From contig CAVPHD010000011.1 in NCBI GenBank assembly GCA_963704165.1, forward strand, positions 64,001 through 128,000: a stretch of 64,000 nt of DNA, given 5' to 3'. Below, in pieces: positions 17,120 through 58,570 of the stretch. Under the pieces are notes generated by a model that was given only the letters and a program-made list of their open reading frames with translations, ran no database searches and was not told where the DNA came from. Source of the DNA: an uncultured delta proteobacterium. Lineage in GTDB: Bacteria > Myxococcota_A > UBA9160 > SZUA-336. How positions within the stretch are numbered: position 1 is the first letter of the stretch; each line of letters opens with the position of its first letter. Position numbers and translations under genes: made by a program.

Positions 17120-17892
17120 CTAACGGAAGTCGCGCCGCTGGAAGAGCAGCACCGCGCCCGACATGAGCACGAACGAGTAGAGCCAGGCGTACAGCGCCGC
17201 GGCGCCGACACGCGCCATCTCGATCGGTCGCCCCGCGCTCGCATCCGCCTTGATGTCGAGCCGGTCGAGGTTCGGCAGCATCCAGTAGAGCGTCTCGAGC
17301 AGCTCCTTCAGGCCCGGCAGGTCGGACTTCGACCCGAATGCGCGGAGATCCGCGAGCAGGTGCCCGACGATCCAGAGCGCGATCGTGAACATCCCCGACA
17401 AGTACGGCGTGGTGAAGCTCGAGAAGAACATCGCGATCGCCGTGACGAGCGCGAGCTCGCAGTAGATCAACGCGATGCTCCAGACGAGGCCCATCTCGAA
17501 GGCGGCGCCGGTCCAGACGAGCACGCCGAGGAAGCACGCGCTCATGATCGCGACCTCGACCGCGAGCAGCGTGAGCAGACCGAAGTACTTGCCGAGCAGG
17601 AACTCCCAGCGACGCACGGGCTTGGCCAGCATCGTGTAGACGGTCTTCATCGAGAGCTCTTTGTGCACCAGGTTGATCCCGACGAAGATCGCGATCAGCA
17701 CGCCGAAGAACGCGATCGACGACAGCCCGATGTCCCGGTAGATGCGATCGTCCTTGCCGATCTGGATCTGCGCGAGCAGCACGGAGCTCGCGATCATCAG
17801 CGCCGCGAAGAGCAGCAGGTTGTAGAGCAGCTTGTCGCGCACGGCTTCGCGGTACGTGTTGGACGCCAGAACCCAGATCCGCCACGGCGAGC

Positions 17893-17896
<4 letters not shown>
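17120..17896 (-). CDS. pilI: ABC transporter permease, PilI-like
   Basis: NTYREAVRDK, LAKPVRRWEFLLGKY, multiple TM helices, FQRRDF end. Confidence 0.88.
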
Positions 17897-18819
<923 letters not shown>

Positions 18820-18821
18820 GT

Positions 18822-19701
18822 TCAGGCGCCCCCTCTCGGCATGTTCAGGCGAATGACCTCGTACGGCAGGTCCGTCGCCGCGCGCCCGTCGGCGATCGAA
18901 TAGGCACCGCCTTTCGGATCGCGTGGAGGGCTCGCGAGGAACCCGGACTCGACCAGCTCCGCGATCGACTTCGGATCGCGCGAGCGGGCGGCGCGGAAGC
19001 CCTCGATCGCGGCATCGATCAGACCGAGATCGCGGTTGATCCAGATGTCGCTCAGGCGCCTTTGCAGCCGTTCGCGCACCTCCGGCGTTTCCTCGTTCTG
19101 AAGCCGCGCGTGGATGAACTGCATCGCGGTGGAGGGGTCGCCGGCGTGTGTATAGAGGCGACTGATCAGGAACTGCAGGTACGGCGGCCCACCGAGGGCG
19201 AAGGCCCGCTCGAGGTGCCGGGCACCCTCCACGTGCTCGCCCTTCTCCATGAAGTACTGGAAGCCGAGCAGGAAGTGGATCCGCCAGTAGTCGCTCTGCG
19301 CAGCGCCCTTCTCGAGCAGACGGATCGCCGCATCGGGATCGGCGCGCAGGCCGTTCAGCACCGAGGCCATCACGCACGTAGGCCTGTCGAAGTGGGGATC
19401 GATGTCGGTCACGAGGCCGGCGAGTCGTTCCGCGCCGGGCCAGTTGGCGGCGGAGGAGTGCTCGTCACCGACGTAGTAGCACGGTGCGGACCCAGAACAG
19501 GTCCGCGACCGCGCGTTCGAAGCCCAGGGAAAGAACGCGCAGGACATTCCCGTCGGGAAGGATGCCGACGTCCCCGTCCGGAGTTCTCTCGATCGCACGT
19601 GTCTCGAGTCGGAGATTCGTTCCGTGCATCGATGCGGCGGCGATCAGCGCGCAAGGCAGCAGAATCGCCTCGACTGGAATCCGGAATAGGCGCCCCACCA
19701 T
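18822..19701 (-). CDS. pilG: PilG-like TPR protein (Myxococcus nomenclature), frameshifted near 19482
   Basis: The N-part (LSLGFERAVADLFWVRTV) and C-part (YYVG...VTDIDPHF...LLEKG...DPKGGAY) are in different frames; position between pilA and pilH. Confidence 0.75.
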
Positions 19702-19711
19702 CTCGCACTCC

Positions 19712-19739
19712 GAATCGGAGTCGTCGGCAGAGCGCTTTA
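19712..19739 (-). promoter_or_regulatory. sigma28-like promoter of pilGHI
   Basis: Minus strand TAAA-N16-TCCGATTC, just after the pilA terminator. Confidence 0.6.
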
Positions 19740-19827: not shown

Positions 19828-20475
<648 letters not shown>

Positions 20476-20555
20476 GCTGTCTCCTTGCTGAGTACTCGAA
20501 ATCCGGAACCCGGCTCTGGGCTCCACTGCCCGAACGCCGGGCCGACCCGGGCAAG

Positions 20556-20571
20556 AGCAAGGGCCGTGCCC
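20556..20571 (-). promoter_or_regulatory. sigma54 -24/-12 promoter of pilA
   Basis: Minus strand GGGCAC-GGCCC-TTGCT matches GGCAC-N5-TTGC. Confidence 0.8.
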
Positions 20572-20673
20572 GCCCGACGGTGCGCTCTCCACGCGCGTGC
20601 ACGTCGCGCCCGATGTCGATGATTTCACTGCCATGGCGCGGCCGCGACGGCGTCGATCCTCGAACGTGTCGCC

Positions 20674-20732
20674 CGTCACCGGGTGACGTTTTGCGAGGGC
20701 CGCAGTGACGAAGAACGTCACCGCCGCAAGCG

Positions 20733-20736
<4 letters not shown>
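20674..20736. promoter_or_regulatory. Cluster of GTGACG/CGTCAC sites, candidate PilR enhancer
   Basis: Five copies (20674, 20683, 20705, 20716, 20731), including the palindrome GTGACG-N5-CGTCAC. Confidence 0.55.
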
Positions 20737-24988: not shown

Positions 24989-26086
<1,098 letters not shown>

Positions 26087-26093
26087 CGCCTTC

Positions 26094-27794
<1,701 letters not shown>

Positions 27795-27859: not shown

Positions 27860-27887
27860 TTATCGGTGGGGGTCGGAGCCAGCTTTA
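27860..27887 (-). promoter_or_regulatory. sigma28-like promoter of the pilBTCSR operon
   Basis: Minus strand TAAA-N16-ACCGATAA. Confidence 0.7.
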
Positions 27888-48764: not shown

Positions 48765-50016
48765 ATGCGGATCGCCCTGCTCACCTACCGGGGGAACATG
48801 TTCTGTGGTGGACAGGGCGTGTACGCCGCTGCGCTCGCACGCGGGCTGCACGAGCTCGGCCACGAGGTCCACGTGATCGCGGGGCCGCCGGCGCCCGAAC
48901 TCGCGCCCGGAATCCCGCTGCACATGATCCCGAACGAGAACTTCTTCGCGCTGCCGATGGCCCAGGCGCTGCCGAAGGACGATCCGTTCCGCGCACTCGC
49001 CCCGGGTAACCTCTGGGAGCTCGGCCTGACACGTCTCGGTGTATTCCCGGAGATGACGGCCTTCGGCATCCGCCTGCTGATGCGCTGGGGCGAGCTGCAG
49101 CGGAAACACCGCTTCGACGTCGTGCTCGACAATCAGTCGCTGTCGTGGGGGCTCCTCGGACTCCAGGCCACCGGAATCCCCGTGACGGCGATGGTGCACC
49201 ACCCGCTGCACATCGACCGCATCGCGGACTTCGAGATCGATCCGCGCTTCCGGCGCAAGTGGCGACGAACGCTGTACTTCCCGCTGTTCATGCAGGAATT
49301 CGTGGTGCCCCGCCTGGCGCGGATCCTGACCGTCTCGAACGCCTCGGCGGCCGAGATCGAGCGCTACTTCCGCGTCCCACAGAAAGAGATCTCGGTCGTC
49401 TACAACGGAACCGACAGCGACGTGTTCCGCCCGCTCGATCGCCCGAAGGAGACGGACCTGATCTTCATCGGGCGCACGGAAGACCGGAAGAAGGGGATTC
49501 CGTACCTGCTCGACGCGCTCGCGCAGACGCCCGAGCACGTCACGCTGAAGATCGTCGACGGCCGCATTCCCGACGACGGGCTCGTACCGCGCAAGCTACG
49601 GGAACTCGGACTCGAGAAACGCGTCGTGTTGGTCAAGCGGATGCTCACCGTCGAAGAGCTGGTCGAGCAGTACTCCACGGCGCGGATCGCGCTGGTTCCG
49701 TCGTTCTTCGAGGGGTTCGGATTTCCCGCCTCCGAGGCGATGGCCTGCGGGCTACCGGTGATCGCGACCGTCGGCGGCGCACTTCCCGAGGTCGTGGGCA
49801 CGAGCGGAGACGCGGGCCGGGTCGGTTCCGTTCCGCGATCCGCCCGCACTGGCGGAGGCCATCACCGAGCTGTGTACCCTGCCGCACGAGCGCGTGGCCG
49901 AGATGGGCCGTGCGGCACGCCGCCGCGTCCAGCACGTCTTCTCCTGGCGCGAAGCGGCCGGGCGAACCGCCGACGTGCTCAGCGAGGTCGTGCGTGCTCA
50001 CCGTCGATCTCGATAG
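48765..50016 (+). CDS. GT4 glycosyltransferase, frameshifted near 49825
   Basis: MRIALLTYRG..CGGQGVY, EGFGFPASEAMACG. Confidence 0.88.
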
Positions 50017-50719
50017 GCTCGGCCTGCGCCGCGACGACTGGCTGCTCGACGCCGGCTGCGGCGGCGGGCGGCACTGCTTCGGCGCGCTCGACCGCGGCGT
50101 GCACACGGTCGGTTTGGACCTCGACACCGCCTCGCTCCGCATCGCGCGCGCCGGCATTCACGAGCGCCGCGGGCGTGCGGTCGAGAAGCTCCACGGCGGA
50201 GTCCTCCGCGGCGACGTCTTCCGCCTGCCGTTTCGCGACTCTGTCTTCGATCGCGTGATCTGCTCCGAAGTCATGGAGCACGTCCACGACTACGGCGCGG
50301 CGCTTCGGGAGCTCGTTCGCGTGCTCCGCCCGGGCGGAACCATCGGCGTGACGATTCCGACCGCGACCACCGAGTGGTTCTATCTCGCCGCGACGCGTCG
50401 GTACTTCGAGAGTCCCGGCGGACACATCCGCGTGTTCCGGCCGCGCGACCTCGCACTCGCGCTCTCGCGGGCCGGCGTGCGCGTGGACGGCGTGGGTTTC
50501 GCGCACTCGCTCCACACGCCGTACTGGCTGGTCCGCTCCGCGCTCGGACTCGACGACGAGTCGCCCGGCCCGACCCGCGCGCTCCGCGGTTTCCTGATCC
50601 GCGCCGCCGTCTCGCGCGTCTGGACGCGCGTCGAACACGCACTCGACTGGATCTGGCCCAAGAGCCTGGTGCTCTACGGCACGCGTGTCGCCACCGGGCG
50701 CCTCGACGGGACGGCGTGA
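49994..50719 (+). CDS. Class I SAM-dependent methyltransferase
   Basis: MLTVDLDRLG, LDAGCGGGRH, LPF..FDRVICSEVMEH. Confidence 0.9.
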   Translation: MLTVDLDRLGLRRDDWLLDAGCGGGRHCFGALDRGVHTVGLDLDTASLRIARAGIHERRGRAVEKLHGGVLRGDVFRLPFRDSVFDRVICSEVMEHVHDYGAALRELVRVLRPGGTIGVTIPTATTEWFYLAATRRYFESPGGHIRVFRPRDLALALSRAGVRVDGVGFAHSLHTPYWLVRSALGLDDESPGPTRALRGFLIRAAVSRVWTRVEHALDWIWPKSLVLYGTRVATGRLDGTA

Positions 50720-52770: not shown

Positions 52771-54162
52771 TCAATCGCTGCCGGGCTCCGGGGCACCCAT
52801 TTTCCGGTAGAACGTGCTGCGGCCGATGCCGAGCAGACTCGCCGCAGCGCGCACGTCGCCCTGGCTCCGGCGCAGCGCTTCCTCGAGACACGCGCGCTCG
52901 AAGGCTTCGAGGGACAGGGCGATGCCATCGGGAACCGTCGCTCGCGGCGCGCTGAAACCGCCCATGCGCAGATCGGCGACCGTCACGCGCGTGCCCTGCG
53001 CGAGGGCGACCGCGGCTTCGATCGTGTTCTCGAGCTCGCGCACGTTTCCTTCCCAGCGATGCGCGATCAGACGCTCGAGCGCCTGCGGCTCGAGACCGAC
53101 GATGCGCGTGCCCGCGGCGGCGCGTTCGAGGAAATGGCTGGCCAGAACCGCCACGTCCTCCGGGCGATCGCGAAGCGGTGGCAGCTGGATCGACACCACC
53201 CGCAAGCGGTAGAAGAGGTCGGAGCGGAATCGGTTCGCGCGCACCTCCGATGCGAGGTCGCGGTTGGTCGCCGCGATGATCCGCACGTCGATCGAGGAGG
53301 CCGTCGGCGAGCCGAGCGGCCGGATCTCGCGCTCTTGGATCGCGCGCAGGAGCTTCGACTGCAGCGAGACCGGGAGCTCGCCGATCTCGTCGAGAAAGAG
53401 CGTCCCGCCGTGGGCACTGCGAAACAGGCCCAGCGAGTCGCGCACCGCACCCGAGAACGCGCCGCGGACATACCCGAAGAGCTCGCCCTCGATGATCCCT
53501 TCGGGCAGGGCTCCGCAATCCACCGGCACGAACGCGCCGGCGCCACGGGGAGAAGTCTCGTGGATCGCGCGCGCGATCAGCTCCTTTCCCGTTCCGCTCT
53601 CGGCCTCGATCAGCACGTTGCTCTCGTTCGCCGAGAGATCCCGCACGGTCTGCAGGACGCGCTTCATCCCGGACGACTGCGCGATCACGCGCTCGAGCGC
53701 GGAGCGGCGGCCGAGCTCGCCCTCGAGCTCGCGATTGCGAACCCGCAGTCGTCGCCTCTCGAGCGCGCGATCGAGCGTCTGCCGAACGCGACGCGGATCG
53801 GCGAACGGCTTCTCCAGGTAGTCGAAGGCTCCCGCGCGCATGCACTCGACGGCGGAGTCGATGCTCGCATAGCCGGTCATCACGATCGTCTCCGTGTCCG
53901 GACAGCGCTCGCGCAGCTCGCCGATCAGATCGAGACCCGAAGCATCGCCGAGTCGCAGGTCGAGCAGAACGATCTCGGGCTCGCGCGCGAGCTGAGCTCG
54001 CAGGCGGCCCACATCGGTCGCTTCGACGACCTCGAAGCCGTCGCGCTCGAGCTGTCGCCGCAGAACGCGGACGATCGAGGGCTCGTCGTCGGCGATCAAC
54101 ACGCGCGTGCCAGACGACGGCCGTCGATTGGCGGAGATGTCGCTCGCGAGAGGGGGAACCAT
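52771..54162 (-). CDS. sigma54-dependent response regulator (GAFSGA variant)
   Basis: REC, ESGTGKE, GAFSGA, WEGNVREL, HTH. Confidence 0.9.
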   Translation of the reverse strand: MVPPLASDISANRRPSSGTRVLIADDEPSIVRVLRRQLERDGFEVVEATDVGRLRAQLAREPEIVLLDLRLGDASGLDLIGELRERCPDTETIVMTGYASIDSAVECMRAGAFDYLEKPFADPRRVRQTLDRALERRRLRVRNRELEGELGRRSALERVIAQSSGMKRVLQTVRDLSANESNVLIEAESGTGKELIARAIHETSPRGAGAFVPVDCGALPEGIIEGELFGYVRGAFSGAVRDSLGLFRSAHGGTLFLDEIGELPVSLQSKLLRAIQEREIRPLGSPTASSIDVRIIAATNRDLASEVRANRFRSDLFYRLRVVSIQLPPLRDRPEDVAVLASHFLERAAAGTRIVGLEPQALERLIAHRWEGNVRELENTIEAAVALAQGTRVTVADLRMGGFSAPRATVPDGIALSLEAFERACLEEALRRSQGDVRAAASLLGIGRSTFYRKMGAPEPGSD

Positions 54163-54244: not shown

Positions 54245-55669
54245 GTGAATCGCAGCTCGACGGCTTGCGGCTCGGTTCTGGTCGTGGACGACGATGCGCT
54301 GTTCCGCGCCGCGCTCGTTCGCTACCTCGAAGGCGATGGCTTCGCCGTCGTCGCGGAGGGCGACCCGGGCGCCGCGATCGAACGTCTCGAGCAGCGCCCC
54401 TTCGATCTCGTCATCACCGACATGCGCATGCCGGGGATGGACGGCATCGCCTTCGTCCGACGCGTTCGCGCGATCGATCCCGAGGCCGTCTGCATCGTCG
54501 TCACCGGCTTCGGCAGTCCCGAGCGCTCGATCGAGGCCCTCGACGCAGGCGCGTTCTGGTTCATCGAGAAGAGCTACGAGCGACTCGCCTGCCTCGCGCC
54601 GCTGATCGCGAAGGCCATCGAATTCCGGCGCCTGCACGGCGCGAACCGCCAGCTGCAGCGTCAGCTCGAAACTCGTTACGGCTTCGAGAACATCGTCGGC
54701 GAGAGCGAAGCGCTGCGCGACACGCTCGAAATCGTGCGAAAAGTCGCGGACTCGGAAGCGACGGTCCTCGTCCTCGGCGAGAGCGGCGTCGGCAAGGAAC
54801 TGGTGGCGCGCGCGATCCACTACAACAGCCCGCGCGCGCAGCGCCCGTTCGTCGCCGTGAACTGCGGCGCGATCCCCGAGGAATTGCTCGAGAGCGAGCT
54901 CTTCGGACACGTGCGCGGCGCCTTCACCGGCGCGCTCCGCGACCGGATCGGGCGGTTCAGTGCGGCGAACGGCGGCACGCTCTTCCTCGACGAGATCGGC
55001 GACATGAGTCCGCAGCTCCAGACCAAGCTCTTGCGCGCGATCCAGGAGCGCGAGTTCGAGCCGGTCGGCTCGTCACGGACCGAGCGCGTGGACGTGCGCA
55101 TCGTCGCCGCCACGAATCAGAACCTGCCGCAGCTGATTCGCGAGCGGCGATTCCGCGAGGATCTCTACTTCCGACTGGCGGTGGTTCCGATCGAGGTACC
55201 CGCACTGCGCCACCGGCGAGAGGACATTCCGCTCCTCGTCCGATCCTTCATCGAAGTGCAGCGGCGTGCCTACCCCGAGATCCAGGGCGTGACGGAGGCC
55301 GCGGTGAAGCGGCTGGTCGAGTACGACTGGCCGGGAAACGTGCGCGAGCTTCAAGCGCTGATCGAACGGCTCACGATTCTGCGTCGGAGCGGTTGGATCG
55401 ACGAGCCCGAGCTTCCGTCGAACATCGCCGGGAACGGCCTCGAGCGGCCGATCGTGTCGCTGCCGGCCACGGGGGTCGATTTCGAAGCCTTGGTTTCCTC
55501 GTATGAGCACGAGCTGATCGTGCAGGCGCTCGAGGCGACGGCCTGGAACAAGAACCGCGCATCGCAGCTGCTCGGGCTCAAGCGCACGACCCTGGTCGAG
55601 AAGATCCGATCGAAGGGCATCGCCGCGCCAGACTCCGATCCGCCTCCGGACCGGCCGCGGTCGAGATAG
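54245..55669 (+). CDS. sigma54-dependent response regulator with FleQ/FlrA-like C-terminal HTH
   Basis: REC (ITDMRMP), GESGVGKE, GAFTGA, LLGLKRTTLVEKIR. Confidence 0.92.
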   Translation: MNRSSTACGSVLVVDDDALFRAALVRYLEGDGFAVVAEGDPGAAIERLEQRPFDLVITDMRMPGMDGIAFVRRVRAIDPEAVCIVVTGFGSPERSIEALDAGAFWFIEKSYERLACLAPLIAKAIEFRRLHGANRQLQRQLETRYGFENIVGESEALRDTLEIVRKVADSEATVLVLGESGVGKELVARAIHYNSPRAQRPFVAVNCGAIPEELLESELFGHVRGAFTGALRDRIGRFSAANGGTLFLDEIGDMSPQLQTKLLRAIQEREFEPVGSSRTERVDVRIVAATNQNLPQLIRERRFREDLYFRLAVVPIEVPALRHRREDIPLLVRSFIEVQRRAYPEIQGVTEAAVKRLVEYDWPGNVRELQALIERLTILRRSGWIDEPELPSNIAGNGLERPIVSLPATGVDFEALVSSYEHELIVQALEATAWNKNRASQLLGLKRTTLVEKIRSKGIAAPDSDPPPDRPRSR

Positions 55670-55733
55670 GGGTCCGTACACGCGCAGAACGCCACGCAAA
55701 GCCGGACCGAGTGACGCCGGTGTCGCGCGCTGC

Positions 55734-55760
55734 TAAAGAAGTCGAGCGCGGCACCGATGC
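55734..55760 (+). promoter_or_regulatory. sigma28-type promoter of the flgM-like gene
   Basis: TAAA-N15-ACCGATGC. Confidence 0.65.
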
Positions 55761-55789
55761 GGGAATCAGGGCCACCCGAAGGAGCCAGC

Positions 55790-56029
55790 ATGGCCAAGCG
55801 CGACGAACGAGGCCGGACCCCGAGCGAGCCGGGTCCCGCTTCCGACGAATCCCAGCTCGACGACCTCTACTCGGTCGAGTACCTGGCCGACGTCGCCGGC
55901 GGCAATGCCCGCGCCGAGCGCCTCGAAGAGTTGAAGCGTCGAATCGCACTCGGCGCGTACCATCCCGCCGCCGATGCGATCGCGGCCGACATGCTGTCCC
56001 GGGTCGGGCTCGGGTCCGACGAGGACTGA
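55790..56029 (+). CDS. flgM: FlgM-like anti-sigma28 factor (79 aa)
   Basis: RAERLEELKRRIALGAYHPAADAIAADML matches the FlgM C-terminal pattern R.ekv..lK..I..G.Y.v....IA..l; AAGGAG SD. Confidence 0.72.
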   Translation: MAKRDERGRTPSEPGPASDESQLDDLYSVEYLADVAGGNARAERLEELKRRIALGAYHPAADAIAADMLSRVGLGSDED

Positions 56030-56049
56030 AGCGACGCCCTGACGCTCCG

Positions 56050-56772
56050 CTAGCCCTCGACGGCGACCAGCACGACGGTCGAGTTGTCGTCGCCTCCACT
56101 GTCGTTCGCGAGCGCTACGAGCGAAGCGGCCGCGCTCGCGAGCCCGCCGGTCCGCGACTCGAGACAGCGATTGATCTCCGCATCCGTGAGCTGCGAGGAA
56201 ATCCCGTCCGAACAGAGCACGAACAAGTCTCCCGGACGAGCGTGGATGGCGGTGACGTCGGGCTCGACCCAGGGAACCACCCCGAGCGCACGCGTGATGA
56301 CGTGACGGCTCGGGTGGCTGCGCGCCTGCTCGGGGCTGAGCTCGCCTCTCGCGACGCGTTCCCCCACGAGCGAATGGTCGAGCGTGAGCGGGCGCAGCTG
56401 TCCGTCGCGATGCAGGTACATGCGGCTGTCGCCGGCGTGCGCGAGCACCGCCTCGTCGTCGCGCAGCCAGAGCGCCGCGAGCGTGGTGCCCATGCCGAGC
56501 AGGCCAGCTTCCGCGTGTGCGGCCTCGTAGATCGCCTCGCTGGCGCAGGTGACCGCTTCTCGCAGAACCTCCGCGGCGCGGCCTTCCGGGTCCCGGCTCA
56601 CCGCCTCGACGAAGACGCCGACGCCCAACTCCGACGCGCGCCGCCCGGCCGCGTGGCCGCCGAGCCCGTCGGCGACGACGAACAGGCCGAGCTTCTCTTC
56701 GAGCGCGTAGAAATCCTCGTTCGCGGTGCGCTTGCGCCCGGTGTCCGTACATGCAGAGACGGAGAATCGCAT
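56050..56772 (-). CDS. PP2C-type Ser/Thr protein phosphatase
   Basis: TDTGRKRTANED, VADGLGGH, GMGTT, AHAGDSR, LCSDG, GGDDNST. Confidence 0.93.
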   Translation of the reverse strand: MRFSVSACTDTGRKRTANEDFYALEEKLGLFVVADGLGGHAAGRRASELGVGVFVEAVSRDPEGRAAEVLREAVTCASEAIYEAAHAEAGLLGMGTTLAALWLRDDEAVLAHAGDSRMYLHRDGQLRPLTLDHSLVGERVARGELSPEQARSHPSRHVITRALGVVPWVEPDVTAIHARPGDLFVLCSDGISSQLTDAEINRCLESRTGGLASAAASLVALANDSGGDDNSTVVLVAVEG

Positions 56773-56893
56773 GCGGCGAGCGCTCCTCGGCGGACCTGGC
56801 GCTTCAGATCGGGATCCGCGCGGGCCAGCTTGATCCTCGCGGGCGGCGATTTGATATGGTTCGAACGGGTGAGAGAGATATCGGAGCGGGCAT

Positions 56894-56921
56894 TCAATCG
56901 CGTTCGGGTGCGATCCGATAG
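56894..56921 (+). promoter_or_regulatory. sigma28-like promoter of romR
   Basis: TCAA-N16-TCCGATAG. Confidence 0.65.
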
Positions 56922-56974
56922 GTACCGGCAAGTCCGGCCGCTTCGAGTGGCAGGCGCATGGAGGTTAGGGGCCG

Positions 56975-58570
56975 ATGCCTAAGACCCTGCTTCTCGCCGA
57001 CGACAGTGTGACGATCCAGAAAGTCGTCGGGATCACGTTCGCGAACGAAGATGTCGAGCTCGTCACCGTGGACAACGGCGACGATGCGCTCGTGCGTGCG
57101 CGCCAGATCAAACCCGATCTCGTGCTCGCCGACATCGGTATGCCCGGGCTCGACGGATACGCGCTCTGCGAGGCGATCCGTCAGGATCCGGACCTCGCGA
57201 ATACGCCGGTGCTTCTGCTGACCGGGACCTTCGAGACCTACGACGAGGACCGCGCTCACGAGGTCGGCGCGAGCGGCCACATCAGCAAGCCGTTCGAGGC
57301 GCAGGCGCTCGTCGATCGCGTCCTCACGATGATCGCGCAGAGCGAAGCGGCCGCCGCGTCCCGTCCTTCGCCACCGACGCAACCGATTCTCGCGCCGGCT
57401 TCACCGCCCATGACGAGCGCGCCCGAGATGGCCGCTCGGCCGCGCCCCGAGCTCCCACCTCTTCCGGGCGCGAGCGTCTCGAACGCGGCGCGTCCCTCCA
57501 AGCCGCGCGCGACCTCGACGTTCGACTTCGACGTCACGCCCGATCCGAGTGTCGAAGTCCCCGCCGTCGCGGAGCCGCTCTGGGAGCCCGGACCGGACTT
57601 CGAAGCACACGACGATTCCCCGGCACGCCGGGTCCACGCTTCGCTCGAGCCCTCGGAGGAAGCCCCGTCCCCGGACGCGACCCACCTGTTCTCGCCCGAA
57701 GCCGTCCGTGCGCCCGCTCGGCCTCCGGCCGCAGTGGAGCCCTTGCACGCGGCCGCTCCCGCGCGATCGGACTTCTCGTTCGAGGACCTCGACTTCGAGG
57801 AGCCCACCGCACCGCCAGGAAGCCACACAGAGATCTTCGGCGAGAACTCGGGTCCGCTCGCTGCGGAAACCGTGGTCGCGATCCGCGAGACGCCGAGGTT
57901 GGACGCGCCCGCCCCGATCACGGCACCCGCGCTCCCCGACCTGCTCAGAGATGACGAGATCACGGCGCCGAGCCAGGACCTCTCCGCGCTGGACTTCTCC
58001 GACGCCGAGCCCGAGATCGAGGCCGAGCCGCTCGACGAGGACGACCCGTTCGGAGAGCCGTTCTCGCCCGACACCTCCGCAGCCCTCGCCGAACCCGAGT
58101 TCGCCCCGGTTCGAACGCGCGGCGCCGAATCGACGCCCGCCCCCGAAGCCACGCGACTTCTCGCGCAGGCCGACGCGCTCGACGCGAACGAGGACGGGCT
58201 CGAGCTCGACGGCGATCTGCTCGACGTCGAGCCGATACCGGAGCTGCCGATGTCGGAGCCGCCGGAAGAGCTCGACGCGTGGAGCGACGTCCACGAACCG
58301 GTAGAGCCGGACCCGCGCCCGACGGCTCCGCTGAACACGGCATCGCGACCGACGGATTCCGGACGCACGACCGCACCGATCATCGACTCCACGCTCCTTT
58401 CCCAGACACTGGAGAAGGTCGCGTGGGAGGCGTTCGGCTCGCTCTCGGAGCAGGTCGTGAACGAGGTCCGCAAGCGCGTCGAGGCCGTGGTCTGGGAAGT
58501 CGTTCCGCAGATGTGCGAGCGGCTGATCCGCGAAGAGATCGCTCGACTCAAGGCCGAGCTGCCGGAGTAG
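56975..58570 (+). CDS. romR: RomR-like polarity response regulator (REC, Pro/acidic linker, C-terminal helix)
   Basis: MPKTLLLADDSVTIQKVVGITFANED...; C-terminal EAVVWEVVPQMCERLIREEIARL. Confidence 0.85.
   Translation: MPKTLLLADDSVTIQKVVGITFANEDVELVTVDNGDDALVRARQIKPDLVLADIGMPGLDGYALCEAIRQDPDLANTPVLLLTGTFETYDEDRAHEVGASGHISKPFEAQALVDRVLTMIAQSEAAAASRPSPPTQPILAPASPPMTSAPEMAARPRPELPPLPGASVSNAARPSKPRATSTFDFDVTPDPSVEVPAVAEPLWEPGPDFEAHDDSPARRVHASLEPSEEAPSPDATHLFSPEAVRAPARPPAAVEPLHAAAPARSDFSFEDLDFEEPTAPPGSHTEIFGENSGPLAAETVVAIRETPRLDAPAPITAPALPDLLRDDEITAPSQDLSALDFSDAEPEIEAEPLDEDDPFGEPFSPDTSAALAEPEFAPVRTRGAESTPAPEATRLLAQADALDANEDGLELDGDLLDVEPIPELPMSEPPEELDAWSDVHEPVEPDPRPTAPLNTASRPTDSGRTTAPIIDSTLLSQTLEKVAWEAFGSLSEQVVNEVRKRVEAVVWEVVPQMCERLIREEIARLKAELPE

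Follow-up and report, generated by a model that had tools for sequence, protein, structure and literature searches.

We analyzed a 64,000-nucleotide (nt) stretch of contig CAVPHD010000011.1 from an uncultured delta proteobacterium (GCA_963704165.1), here called the window, and identified a flgM-like gene (55790..56029, + strand) that encodes a predicted anti-sigma-28 factor of 79 amino acids (aa). The gene is a genuine FlgM-domain gene by its sequence. We hold with moderate confidence that it is an ancestral flagellar flgM that has been kept under selection in a genus without found flagellar genes, and that its product likely still binds and restrains the remaining FliA-type sigma-28. The evidence comes from the FlgM family of Pfam (PF04316), homologue clusters, the ratio of non-synonymous to synonymous substitutions (dN/dS), the arrangement of the locus in related genomes and a model of the FlgM-FliA complex.

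A conserved FlgM-domain gene

The 79-aa frame starts with an ATG at 55790, with GGAG 5-6 nt upstream of it, and its stop codon ends at 56029. The protein matched PF04316 over residues 34-69 with 29 bits (E 1.2e-6), above the curated gathering score of 25 that served as the cut-off, and its relatives scored up to 40.5 bits. An earlier note on this DNA had read a FlgM-type C-terminal sigma-binding signature from the letters of the ORF (open reading frame), and the PF04316 match bears this out. The comparison with FlgM hidden Markov models that the note had proposed came out divided, as the protein passed PF04316 and fell short of TIGR03824, the stricter and narrower FlgM equivalog of NCBIfam. 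A search of 5.8 billion proteins returned 32 homologue clusters, nearly all of 79-83 aa and with 58-84% identity, which share an invariant core (AGG-AR-ERLEELKRRI) and vary in the N-terminal third.

In our genome collection, the order to which the window belongs comprises 32 genomes, all from one family and spread over 16 genera; 12 of these genomes fall in the genus of the window (g1). The flgM-like gene, which is the sole PF04316 gene of its own genome, was present in 27 of the 32 genomes, in 17/17 high-quality ones and in 11/12 of the genus; the five genomes without a match are 58-89% complete. All 27 positive genomes, flagellated ones included, had exactly one PF04316 gene, and this was always the flgM-like orthologue. 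Pairwise dN/dS values ranged from 0.23 to 0.56 (21 pairs from seven loci that have the arrangement of the window, without an adjacent fliA). Judged by these comparisons, flgM is kept under selection in the window's genus.

Flagellar genes in the genome, genus and phylum

The genome (3.87 Mb in 12 contigs) had no match for any of the five flagellar families tested, namely FHIPEP/FlhA, Flagellin_N, Flg_bb_rod, FliG_C and FliP. Pfam searches over 37 ORFs of the window also revealed no flagellar gene, as the earlier note had stated, and the genome-wide inventory that it had called for found no complete flagellar system in the 84%-complete assembly. In the window's genus, FHIPEP and Flagellin_N were each found in 0/12 genomes, eight of which are 90-97% complete. 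An export gate for the removal of FlgM was thus not detected, either as FHIPEP or FliP in the genome itself or as FHIPEP in the 12 genomes of the genus. With fliA and flgM both present and no flagellar structural or export genes found, the genome belongs to the orphan FliA/FlgM type.

Across the order, FHIPEP was present in 13/32 genomes and flagellin in 14/32, in the same 11 of the 16 genera. Neither was found in genera g2, g4, g8 and g9, all of which have kept flgM and a fliA gene. We built a quick IQ-TREE phylogeny from the two NtrC-type neighbors of flgM (18 rows, 933 columns), in which rows L008-L013 were assigned to the window's genus by their branching with the window and their common arrangement. 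The genus formed a clade (SH-aLRT 100) inside a clade with the flagellated g5, g7 and g12 (SH-aLRT 98). This tree needed four changes of flagellar state, at least two of which were forced by strongly supported branches.

In a sample of 301 genomes from the phylum, a FlgM-domain gene was found in 101 and FHIPEP in 175. Outside the family of the window, 88 of 90 FlgM-positive genomes were also positive for FHIPEP, so FlgM without an export gate is the exception. The only two genomes outside the family with FlgM and without a FHIPEP match, G032 (three FlgM-domain matches) and G074, may be further flagellum-less cases. Families f2-f9 of the window's class had no Pfam FlgM match in the sampled genomes and had FHIPEP in 17/47; therefore an anti-sigma-28 factor there, if any, is not recognizable by PF04316.

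The remaining fliA gene and the evolution of the locus

The genome contains one FliA_WhiG equivalog (274 bits versus a cut-off of 189.6) at G000:C4:563876-564544, so that fliA and flgM lie on different contigs and are not linked. This fliA (locus G000:C4:562376-566044, L002) is located between a CNNM/CBS/CorC-type gene and a divergent PilZ-domain gene. In a quick IQ-TREE phylogeny of 35 rows, the fliA genes of the family fell into three clades, A (SH-aLRT 97), B (99) and C (97). Clade A genes always lie between an NtrC-type gene and flgM, clade B genes lie beside the CNNM/CorC gene, and clade C genes occupy a third context with VTT-domain and class-V aminotransferase neighbors and no flagellar genes. 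The contexts examined did not point to any one paralogue as the flagellar copy.

In every genus with a recovered locus except g1 and g5, flgM is found directly downstream of the clade A fliA, between the NtrC-type and RomR-like genes. The window's genus and the flagellated g5 have the B copy only, and flgM follows the NtrC-type gene directly. The word orphan, which the earlier note had applied to the gene, does not fit the sole FlgM-domain gene of a family in which it otherwise stands directly after fliA. For the same two reasons, the gene is best seen as the ancestral flagellar flgM left after flagellar loss, and by this comparison of loci the window's genus has lost both the flagellum and the neighboring fliA. 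Region 4 of FliA is almost unchanged among clades A, B and C, and the sigma-binding core of FlgM stays invariant whether or not a genus has fliA next to flgM. At L038 (G002:C49:56900-65800), which is from a flagellated genus, the flgM-like match and the adjacent fliA are on opposite strands, and no strict sigma-28 motif was present upstream of the match.

Predicted contact between FlgM and FliA

The complex of the genome's own FliA with the FlgM-like protein was modeled from alignments of 32 rows for FliA and 22 rows for the FlgM-like protein. The model reached an ipSAE of 0.63 (0.67, 0.61 and 0.63 in the runs) versus 0.00 for the best of three controls; a value at least this high was obtained for 116 of 157 solved complexes and 2 of 215 mismatched pairs. 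The runs shared at least 44% of their contacts. Residues 45-71 of FlgM are predicted to lie on residues 185-224 of FliA, which correspond to sigma region 4. The modeling test against the genome's sigma factor that the earlier note had suggested is therefore in favor of a FlgM C-terminus that would dock on region 4.

Sigma-28-type promoters

A sigma-28-type promoter, TAAAG-N15-CCGAT, was predicted from sequence and conservation at 55734..55758 (+), 31 nt upstream of the flgM ATG. The sigma-28 consensus is TAAAGTTT-N11-GCCGATAA, and the flgM site, TAAAGAAG-N11-ACCGATGC, has the same spacing. The pattern TAAAG-N14-16-CCGA[TA] was found upstream of flgM in 24 of 28 locus records, or 19/23 when five contig duplicates were removed, with or without a preceding fliA. 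The earlier observation that the gene has its own TAAA-N15 promoter is supported by this conservation. No sigma-70-like site was found in 55600-56150. A GGCAC-N5-TTGC[AT] scan gave no sigma-54 site upstream of flgM, and inspection of the 120-nt spacer by eye revealed only GG-N11-GC, which has the wrong spacing.

TAAAG occurs 139 times in the genome when both strands are counted. When we scanned the spacing to CCGAT, N16 gave eight matches and N15 and N14 one each; other spacings from 4 to 31 gave 0-2, and 0.28 were expected per spacing. TAAAG-N14-16-CCGAT was found ten times versus three in the reversed control, and 18 times versus one in G015, the pattern being commoner than its reversed control across the order. 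Widening the motif to CCGA[AT] produced 12 matches versus 13 in the reversed sequence, with only two contributed by the CCGAA variant; since this control was uninformative, the spacing scan is the better test.

The ten sites of the genome precede flgM, pilB, a TPR/ABC-2 operon, a PilZ-domain gene, a LysM gene, a Zn-ribbon gene, an HTH_3 gene, a lipoprotein gene and a 605-aa gene of unknown family, and the last is a doubtful N14 site. Three of the ten (those of flgM, pilB and the TPR/ABC-2 operon) are located in the window, which makes up 1.65% of the genome (binomial chance about 5e-4, for a count made post hoc). The HTH_3 gene encodes 102 aa (G000:C8:11099-11438) and is preceded by a sigma-28-type promoter, TAAAGAA...CCCGAT, which by likeness recurs in 12/12 genomes of the genus and, outside it, in several further genera; its product may act as a regulator at a second level of the regulon. 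An N14-spaced site at G000:C7:59886-59909, TAAAGCCCGGGTCC(G/C)GACGCCGAT, was almost letter-identical in seven genomes of the genus. Its conservation goes far beyond that of the other sites, so it probably belongs to a conserved gene or RNA and is not a promoter.

Flagellin genes of four out of five flagellated relatives carried TAAAGATC-N16-CCGAA 130-145 nt upstream, and the fifth had a TTAAG variant. The strict TAAAG-N14-16-CCGAT pattern was absent upstream of the five flagellin genes examined. The CCGAA variant at flagellins argues that the sigma-28 promoter type of this lineage is the classical one.

Type IV pilus genes as predicted targets

By Pfam, the window contains a type IV pilus cluster with pilQ, pilO, pilM, a PilR-like activator, a pilin gene, pilT and pilB. 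The pilB gene (26094..27794, - strand; Pfam T2SSE and MshEN) encodes the extension ATPase and is followed by pilT (24989-26086; Pfam). It is a predicted sigma-28 target, as motif scan and conservation point to a sigma-28-type promoter, TAAAG-N16-CCGATAAC, at 27862..27887 (-), 93 nt upstream of its start. This site reads TAAAGCT...CCGATAAC and shares sequence with the final codons of the LPG_synthase_TM gene upstream. A sigma-28-type site was located 65-95 nt upstream of pilB in 10/10 congeners fetched. In other genera, 10/11 candidate sites were 86-108 nt upstream of pilB, from ten genomes of which seven are flagellated and three are not; these sites had been picked non-randomly from the motif list, by their distance from flgM or by likeness. 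With the window included, the motif preceded pilB in 21/21 genomes checked. The occurrence of this promoter type in flagellated and non-flagellated members alike implies that these regulators would already have served a second client while the flagellum was still present.

A second predicted promoter of the cluster, TAAAG-N16-CCGAT at 19714..19739 (-), was found by motif scan between pilA and a TPR/ABC-transporter operon. The same site recurs in 3/3 congeners fetched and in G011 and G002. The operon (17120..19598, -) lies downstream of pilA and, by Pfam, encodes a TPR protein (18822-19598) and an ABC-2 permease (17120-17896), both predicted sigma-28 targets. The pilin ORF is listed at 19828-20736, with its N_methyl motif at residues 96-121, and the motif scan placed a putative sigma-54-type promoter of the gene, GGCAC-N5-TTGCT, upstream at 20556..20570 (-). 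Of the 25 GGCAC-N5-TTGC[AT] sites in the genome, this one, GGCACGGCCCTTGCT, alone falls within the window. The pilA gene has this sigma-54-type site in place of a sigma-28-type promoter. The suggestion of the earlier note that FlgM could be the anti-sigma factor of the pilus regulon is therefore plausible through the pilB and TPR/ABC promoters and does not extend to pilA itself.

A predicted sigma-54 layer upstream of fliA

The motif GGCAC-N5-TTGCA was present 44-86 nt upstream of fliA in 28/36 loci (14/17 of clade B, 11/15 of clade A and 3/4 of clade C). In the window's genome the N5 spacing of GGCAC-N5-TTGC[AT] gave 25 matches versus 2-8 at other spacings, and rpoN is present. The clade B fliA of the genus also has TCAAG-N16-CCGAT at -106 to -110 in 10/11 loci, compared with 0/6 clade B loci of other genera; upstream of the genome's own fliA it lies 34 nt further up than GGCAC-N5-TTGCA. 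Such a site would let FliA raise its own level, by possible self-activation.

A candidate for the activator lies beside flgM. The gene at 54245..55669 (+) encodes, by Pfam, a protein with Response_reg (86.7 bits), Sigma54_activat and HTH_8 domains, that is, a receiver, an AAA+ domain with GAFTGA in the translation and a Fis-type helix-turn-helix (HTH). Its frame is open from 54107 and orthologues align from about residue 44-55, which is consistent with a GTG start at 54245. The earlier note had called it FleQ/FlrA-like by its HTH. The FleQ N-terminal domain was not among its 15 Pfam matches and all NCBIfam equivalogs were below their cut-offs, so that this wording is non-specific; by its domains, including a true receiver, the product is an NtrC-type response regulator and not of the FleQ type.

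Neighboring genes

Thirteen named loci share the order NtrC-type (-), NtrC-type (+), flgM-like (+), PP2C (-), RomR-like (+), nadC and birA. Twelve of them are from metagenome-assembled genomes labelled Myxococcota, Myxococcales, Deltaproteobacteria or bacterium, and one is labelled Gammaproteobacteria. The second NtrC-type sigma-54 activator (52771..54162, -) is divergent from the first and was recognized as a conserved neighbor by Pfam, NCBIfam and locus comparison. The other conserved neighbor, at 56975..58570 (+), is a response regulator with a receiver and a long Pro/Ala/Glu-rich tail (Pfam and translation), and is RomR-like by architecture alone. Conservation among relatives covers its N- and C-terminal segments, and an atlas look-up returned unnamed response-regulator clusters only. 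Further upstream, the frame of a GT4 glycosyltransferase (48765-50258, +) continues into a tail of low complexity, and a second frame with a methyltransferase-like end (49145-50719, +) overlaps it.

Discussion

The simplest circuit that these predictions suggest begins with an NtrC-type activator that would turn on fliA together with sigma-54. This would most simply be the activator beside flgM, which directly precedes fliA in sister genera. A sigma-54 activator stands upstream in the hierarchy of polar-flagellate cascades, and likewise here by prediction. FliA would then transcribe a regulon of about nine promoters, among them those of pilB(-pilT), the TPR/ABC operon, a PilZ protein and flgM, and FlgM would close a negative feedback loop by binding region 4 of FliA, as in the model. 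We put forward tentatively, with rather less confidence than the binding of FlgM to FliA, that this sigma-54 to sigma-28 to FlgM hierarchy already ran pilB in the flagellated ancestor. This would explain the retention of FliA and FlgM in five genera that have lost the flagellum; the hierarchy would now be a dedicated pilus-motility switch in which FlgM is released by a cue unrelated to the hook-basal body.

Several observations weigh against the view that flgM is a retained, FliA-binding anti-sigma factor. The protein scored 21.3 against the TIGR03824 cut-off of 40.75, and when the profile of the family was compared with solved structures no FlgM was returned, the sole match being a chance one to uS13 (E 0.07). 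The partner pLDDT in the complex model was only 50-52. Since complexes of the well-known FliA-FlgM pair have been solved, the pass of the model may reflect likeness to a known pair and is not proof that the genome's own copy binds. The fliA kept in the window's genus belongs to clade B and not to the flgM-adjacent clade A of the sister genera; for this reason the pairing of FlgM with this FliA rests on the complex model and on g5. That FliA reads the TAAAG-N16-CCGAT sites is likewise inferred, by their likeness to the sigma-28 consensus. The strict flgM promoter pattern was missing in 4/23 distinct loci and, within the genus, in 4/12 genomes (present in 8/12). The pilB sites of other genera were not a random sample, and one of the 11, L064, was not upstream of pilB. 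Finally, the genome is 84% complete. A look-up of sequencing runs for 54800-56900 listed none of any kind, RNA included, a result that carries no information on expression.

Four other explanations were weighed. The first is that FlgM is released by a partner switch based on Ser/Thr phosphorylation, as with HsbA/HsbR of Pseudomonas aeruginosa, using the neighboring PP2C phosphatase. The earlier note had pointed to a PP2C gene nearby, and it is present at 56050..56931 (-), 20 nt beyond flgM, as identified by Pfam and NCBIfam. Within the genus it is present in all loci long enough to cover this position, and in other genera it occurs in 10 of 16 orthologous loci; in the remaining six (G016, G012, G018, G003, G017 and G007) it is missing between flgM and the RomR-like gene. 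The phosphatase is of the Stp1/PrpC type (228.5 versus a cut-off of 230 bits), and its SpoIIE match was below cut-off. No STAS anti-sigma antagonist (TIGR00377) reached its cut-off in the genome, the best match scoring 46.9 versus 53.45 on another contig. Moreover, flgM and the PP2C gene are convergent and therefore do not form one operon. With a phosphatase of this type that is not constant at the locus, and with no STAS antagonist at cut-off, such a switch finds little support and we consider it unlikely.

The loss of the former neighbor, the clade A fliA, from the genus, together with the linkage of flgM to NtrC-type and RomR-like genes in all loci, could mean that the FlgM-like protein has changed partner, for example to the neighboring NtrC-type activator or to polarity proteins. 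The constancy of both contact regions speaks against this, as the sigma-binding core of FlgM does not vary with the presence of an adjacent fliA and region 4 hardly differs between the three clades. The complex model with the B copy also passed its controls, and the flagellated g5 has the B copy only with the same arrangement of flgM. A change of partner therefore appears quite improbable.

We regard as very unlikely that the gene is a decaying relic which survives by chance, and without function, after flagellar loss. The absence of the cognate adjacent fliA from the genus and the poorly conserved N-terminal third of FlgM would fit a relic. Against it stand the selection seen in the dN/dS values, the conserved promoter and Shine-Dalgarno sequence, presence in 11/12 genomes of the genus and in all 17 high-quality genomes of the order, the retention of flgM and fliA in five genera without found flagellar genes (the window's genus and g2, g4, g8 and g9), and the at least two changes of flagellar state that strongly supported branches of the tree force. 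As the completeness of the assembly and the flagellated sister genera of the family might suggest, the organism could also be flagellated, with flgM as an ordinary dispersed gene and the flagellar clusters missed in the 16% of the genome that was not assembled. This is hardly credible because none of the 12 genomes in the genus, of which eight are 90-97% complete, had flagellar genes found (FHIPEP and flagellin 0/12, and 0/5 families in the window's genome), and the flagellin-type CCGAA variant adds only two matches there.

The retention of FliA and FlgM without flagella has a precedent. Legionella oakridgensis lacks a flagellar regulon and has kept functional FliA and FlgM (Tlapak et al. 2017, via PMC5655016), so the basic phenomenon is not new. 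As in the window's genome, fliA and flgM were kept there without the flagellar regulon, and flgM has a sigma-28-type promoter (PMC5655016). In both organisms FlgM has no exit through a basal body, and its control must therefore be export-independent; by analogy with L. oakridgensis, FlgM would be removed here by turnover, that is proteolysis or dilution, instead of secretion. Unlike L. oakridgensis, flgM and fliA are on different contigs here, and the kept fliA is a paralogue of the flgM-adjacent one in sister genera. The regulon predicted here also takes in pilB and further genes linked to the pilus, the same pattern is seen in five genera within a single uncultured myxobacterial family, and the system is known from sequence alone.

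With the canonical FlgM/sigma-28 checkpoint of Salmonella and E. coli (as described in part in PMC5655016), the window's system shares the FlgM domain, the predicted contact with region 4 and a sigma-28-type flgM promoter. It differs in having no hook-basal body or export gate found and no flgA/flgN neighbors, and in a shorter protein (79 aa) that does not reach the NCBIfam equivalog score. The non-flagellated Lysobacter enzymogenes OH11 is reported to re-use parts of the flagellar export apparatus for twitching (PMC7277350, PMC7688988). Like the organism of the window, it is of the predator type and still has genes of the flagellar system with a bearing on motility by type IV pili; it retains export-apparatus parts, whereas here the export apparatus appears to be gone and only the sigma and anti-sigma regulators are left. 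In Streptomyces, WhiG is a sigma-28-family factor of a non-flagellar program whose anti-sigma factor, RsiG, is reported to be armed by cyclic di-GMP (PMC13595943). The likeness lies in the use of a sigma-28-family factor for a non-flagellar program in non-motile bacteria, and the difference is that the anti-sigma factor here, unlike RsiG, has a true FlgM domain.

Among the literature matches listed, titles and the opening parts of abstracts mentioned no sigma-28 promoter upstream of pilB, and those on FliA in the flagellar context of Myxococcota were unrelated work only. What is new is the family-wide sigma-28-type promoter upstream of a pilus motor gene, the swap of fliA paralogues and the repeated retention of the regulators after independent flagellar losses. 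Every functional step is a prediction. If these predictions hold, they would provide a concrete reason why flagellar regulators outlive flagella, and a short list of candidate sigma-28 targets in a pilus-moving lineage, namely pilB, the TPR/ABC operon, the PilZ, HTH, LysM and Zn-ribbon genes and flgM itself. They also pose a clean question for this family, which is how FlgM would be relieved from sigma-28 when there is no export gate.

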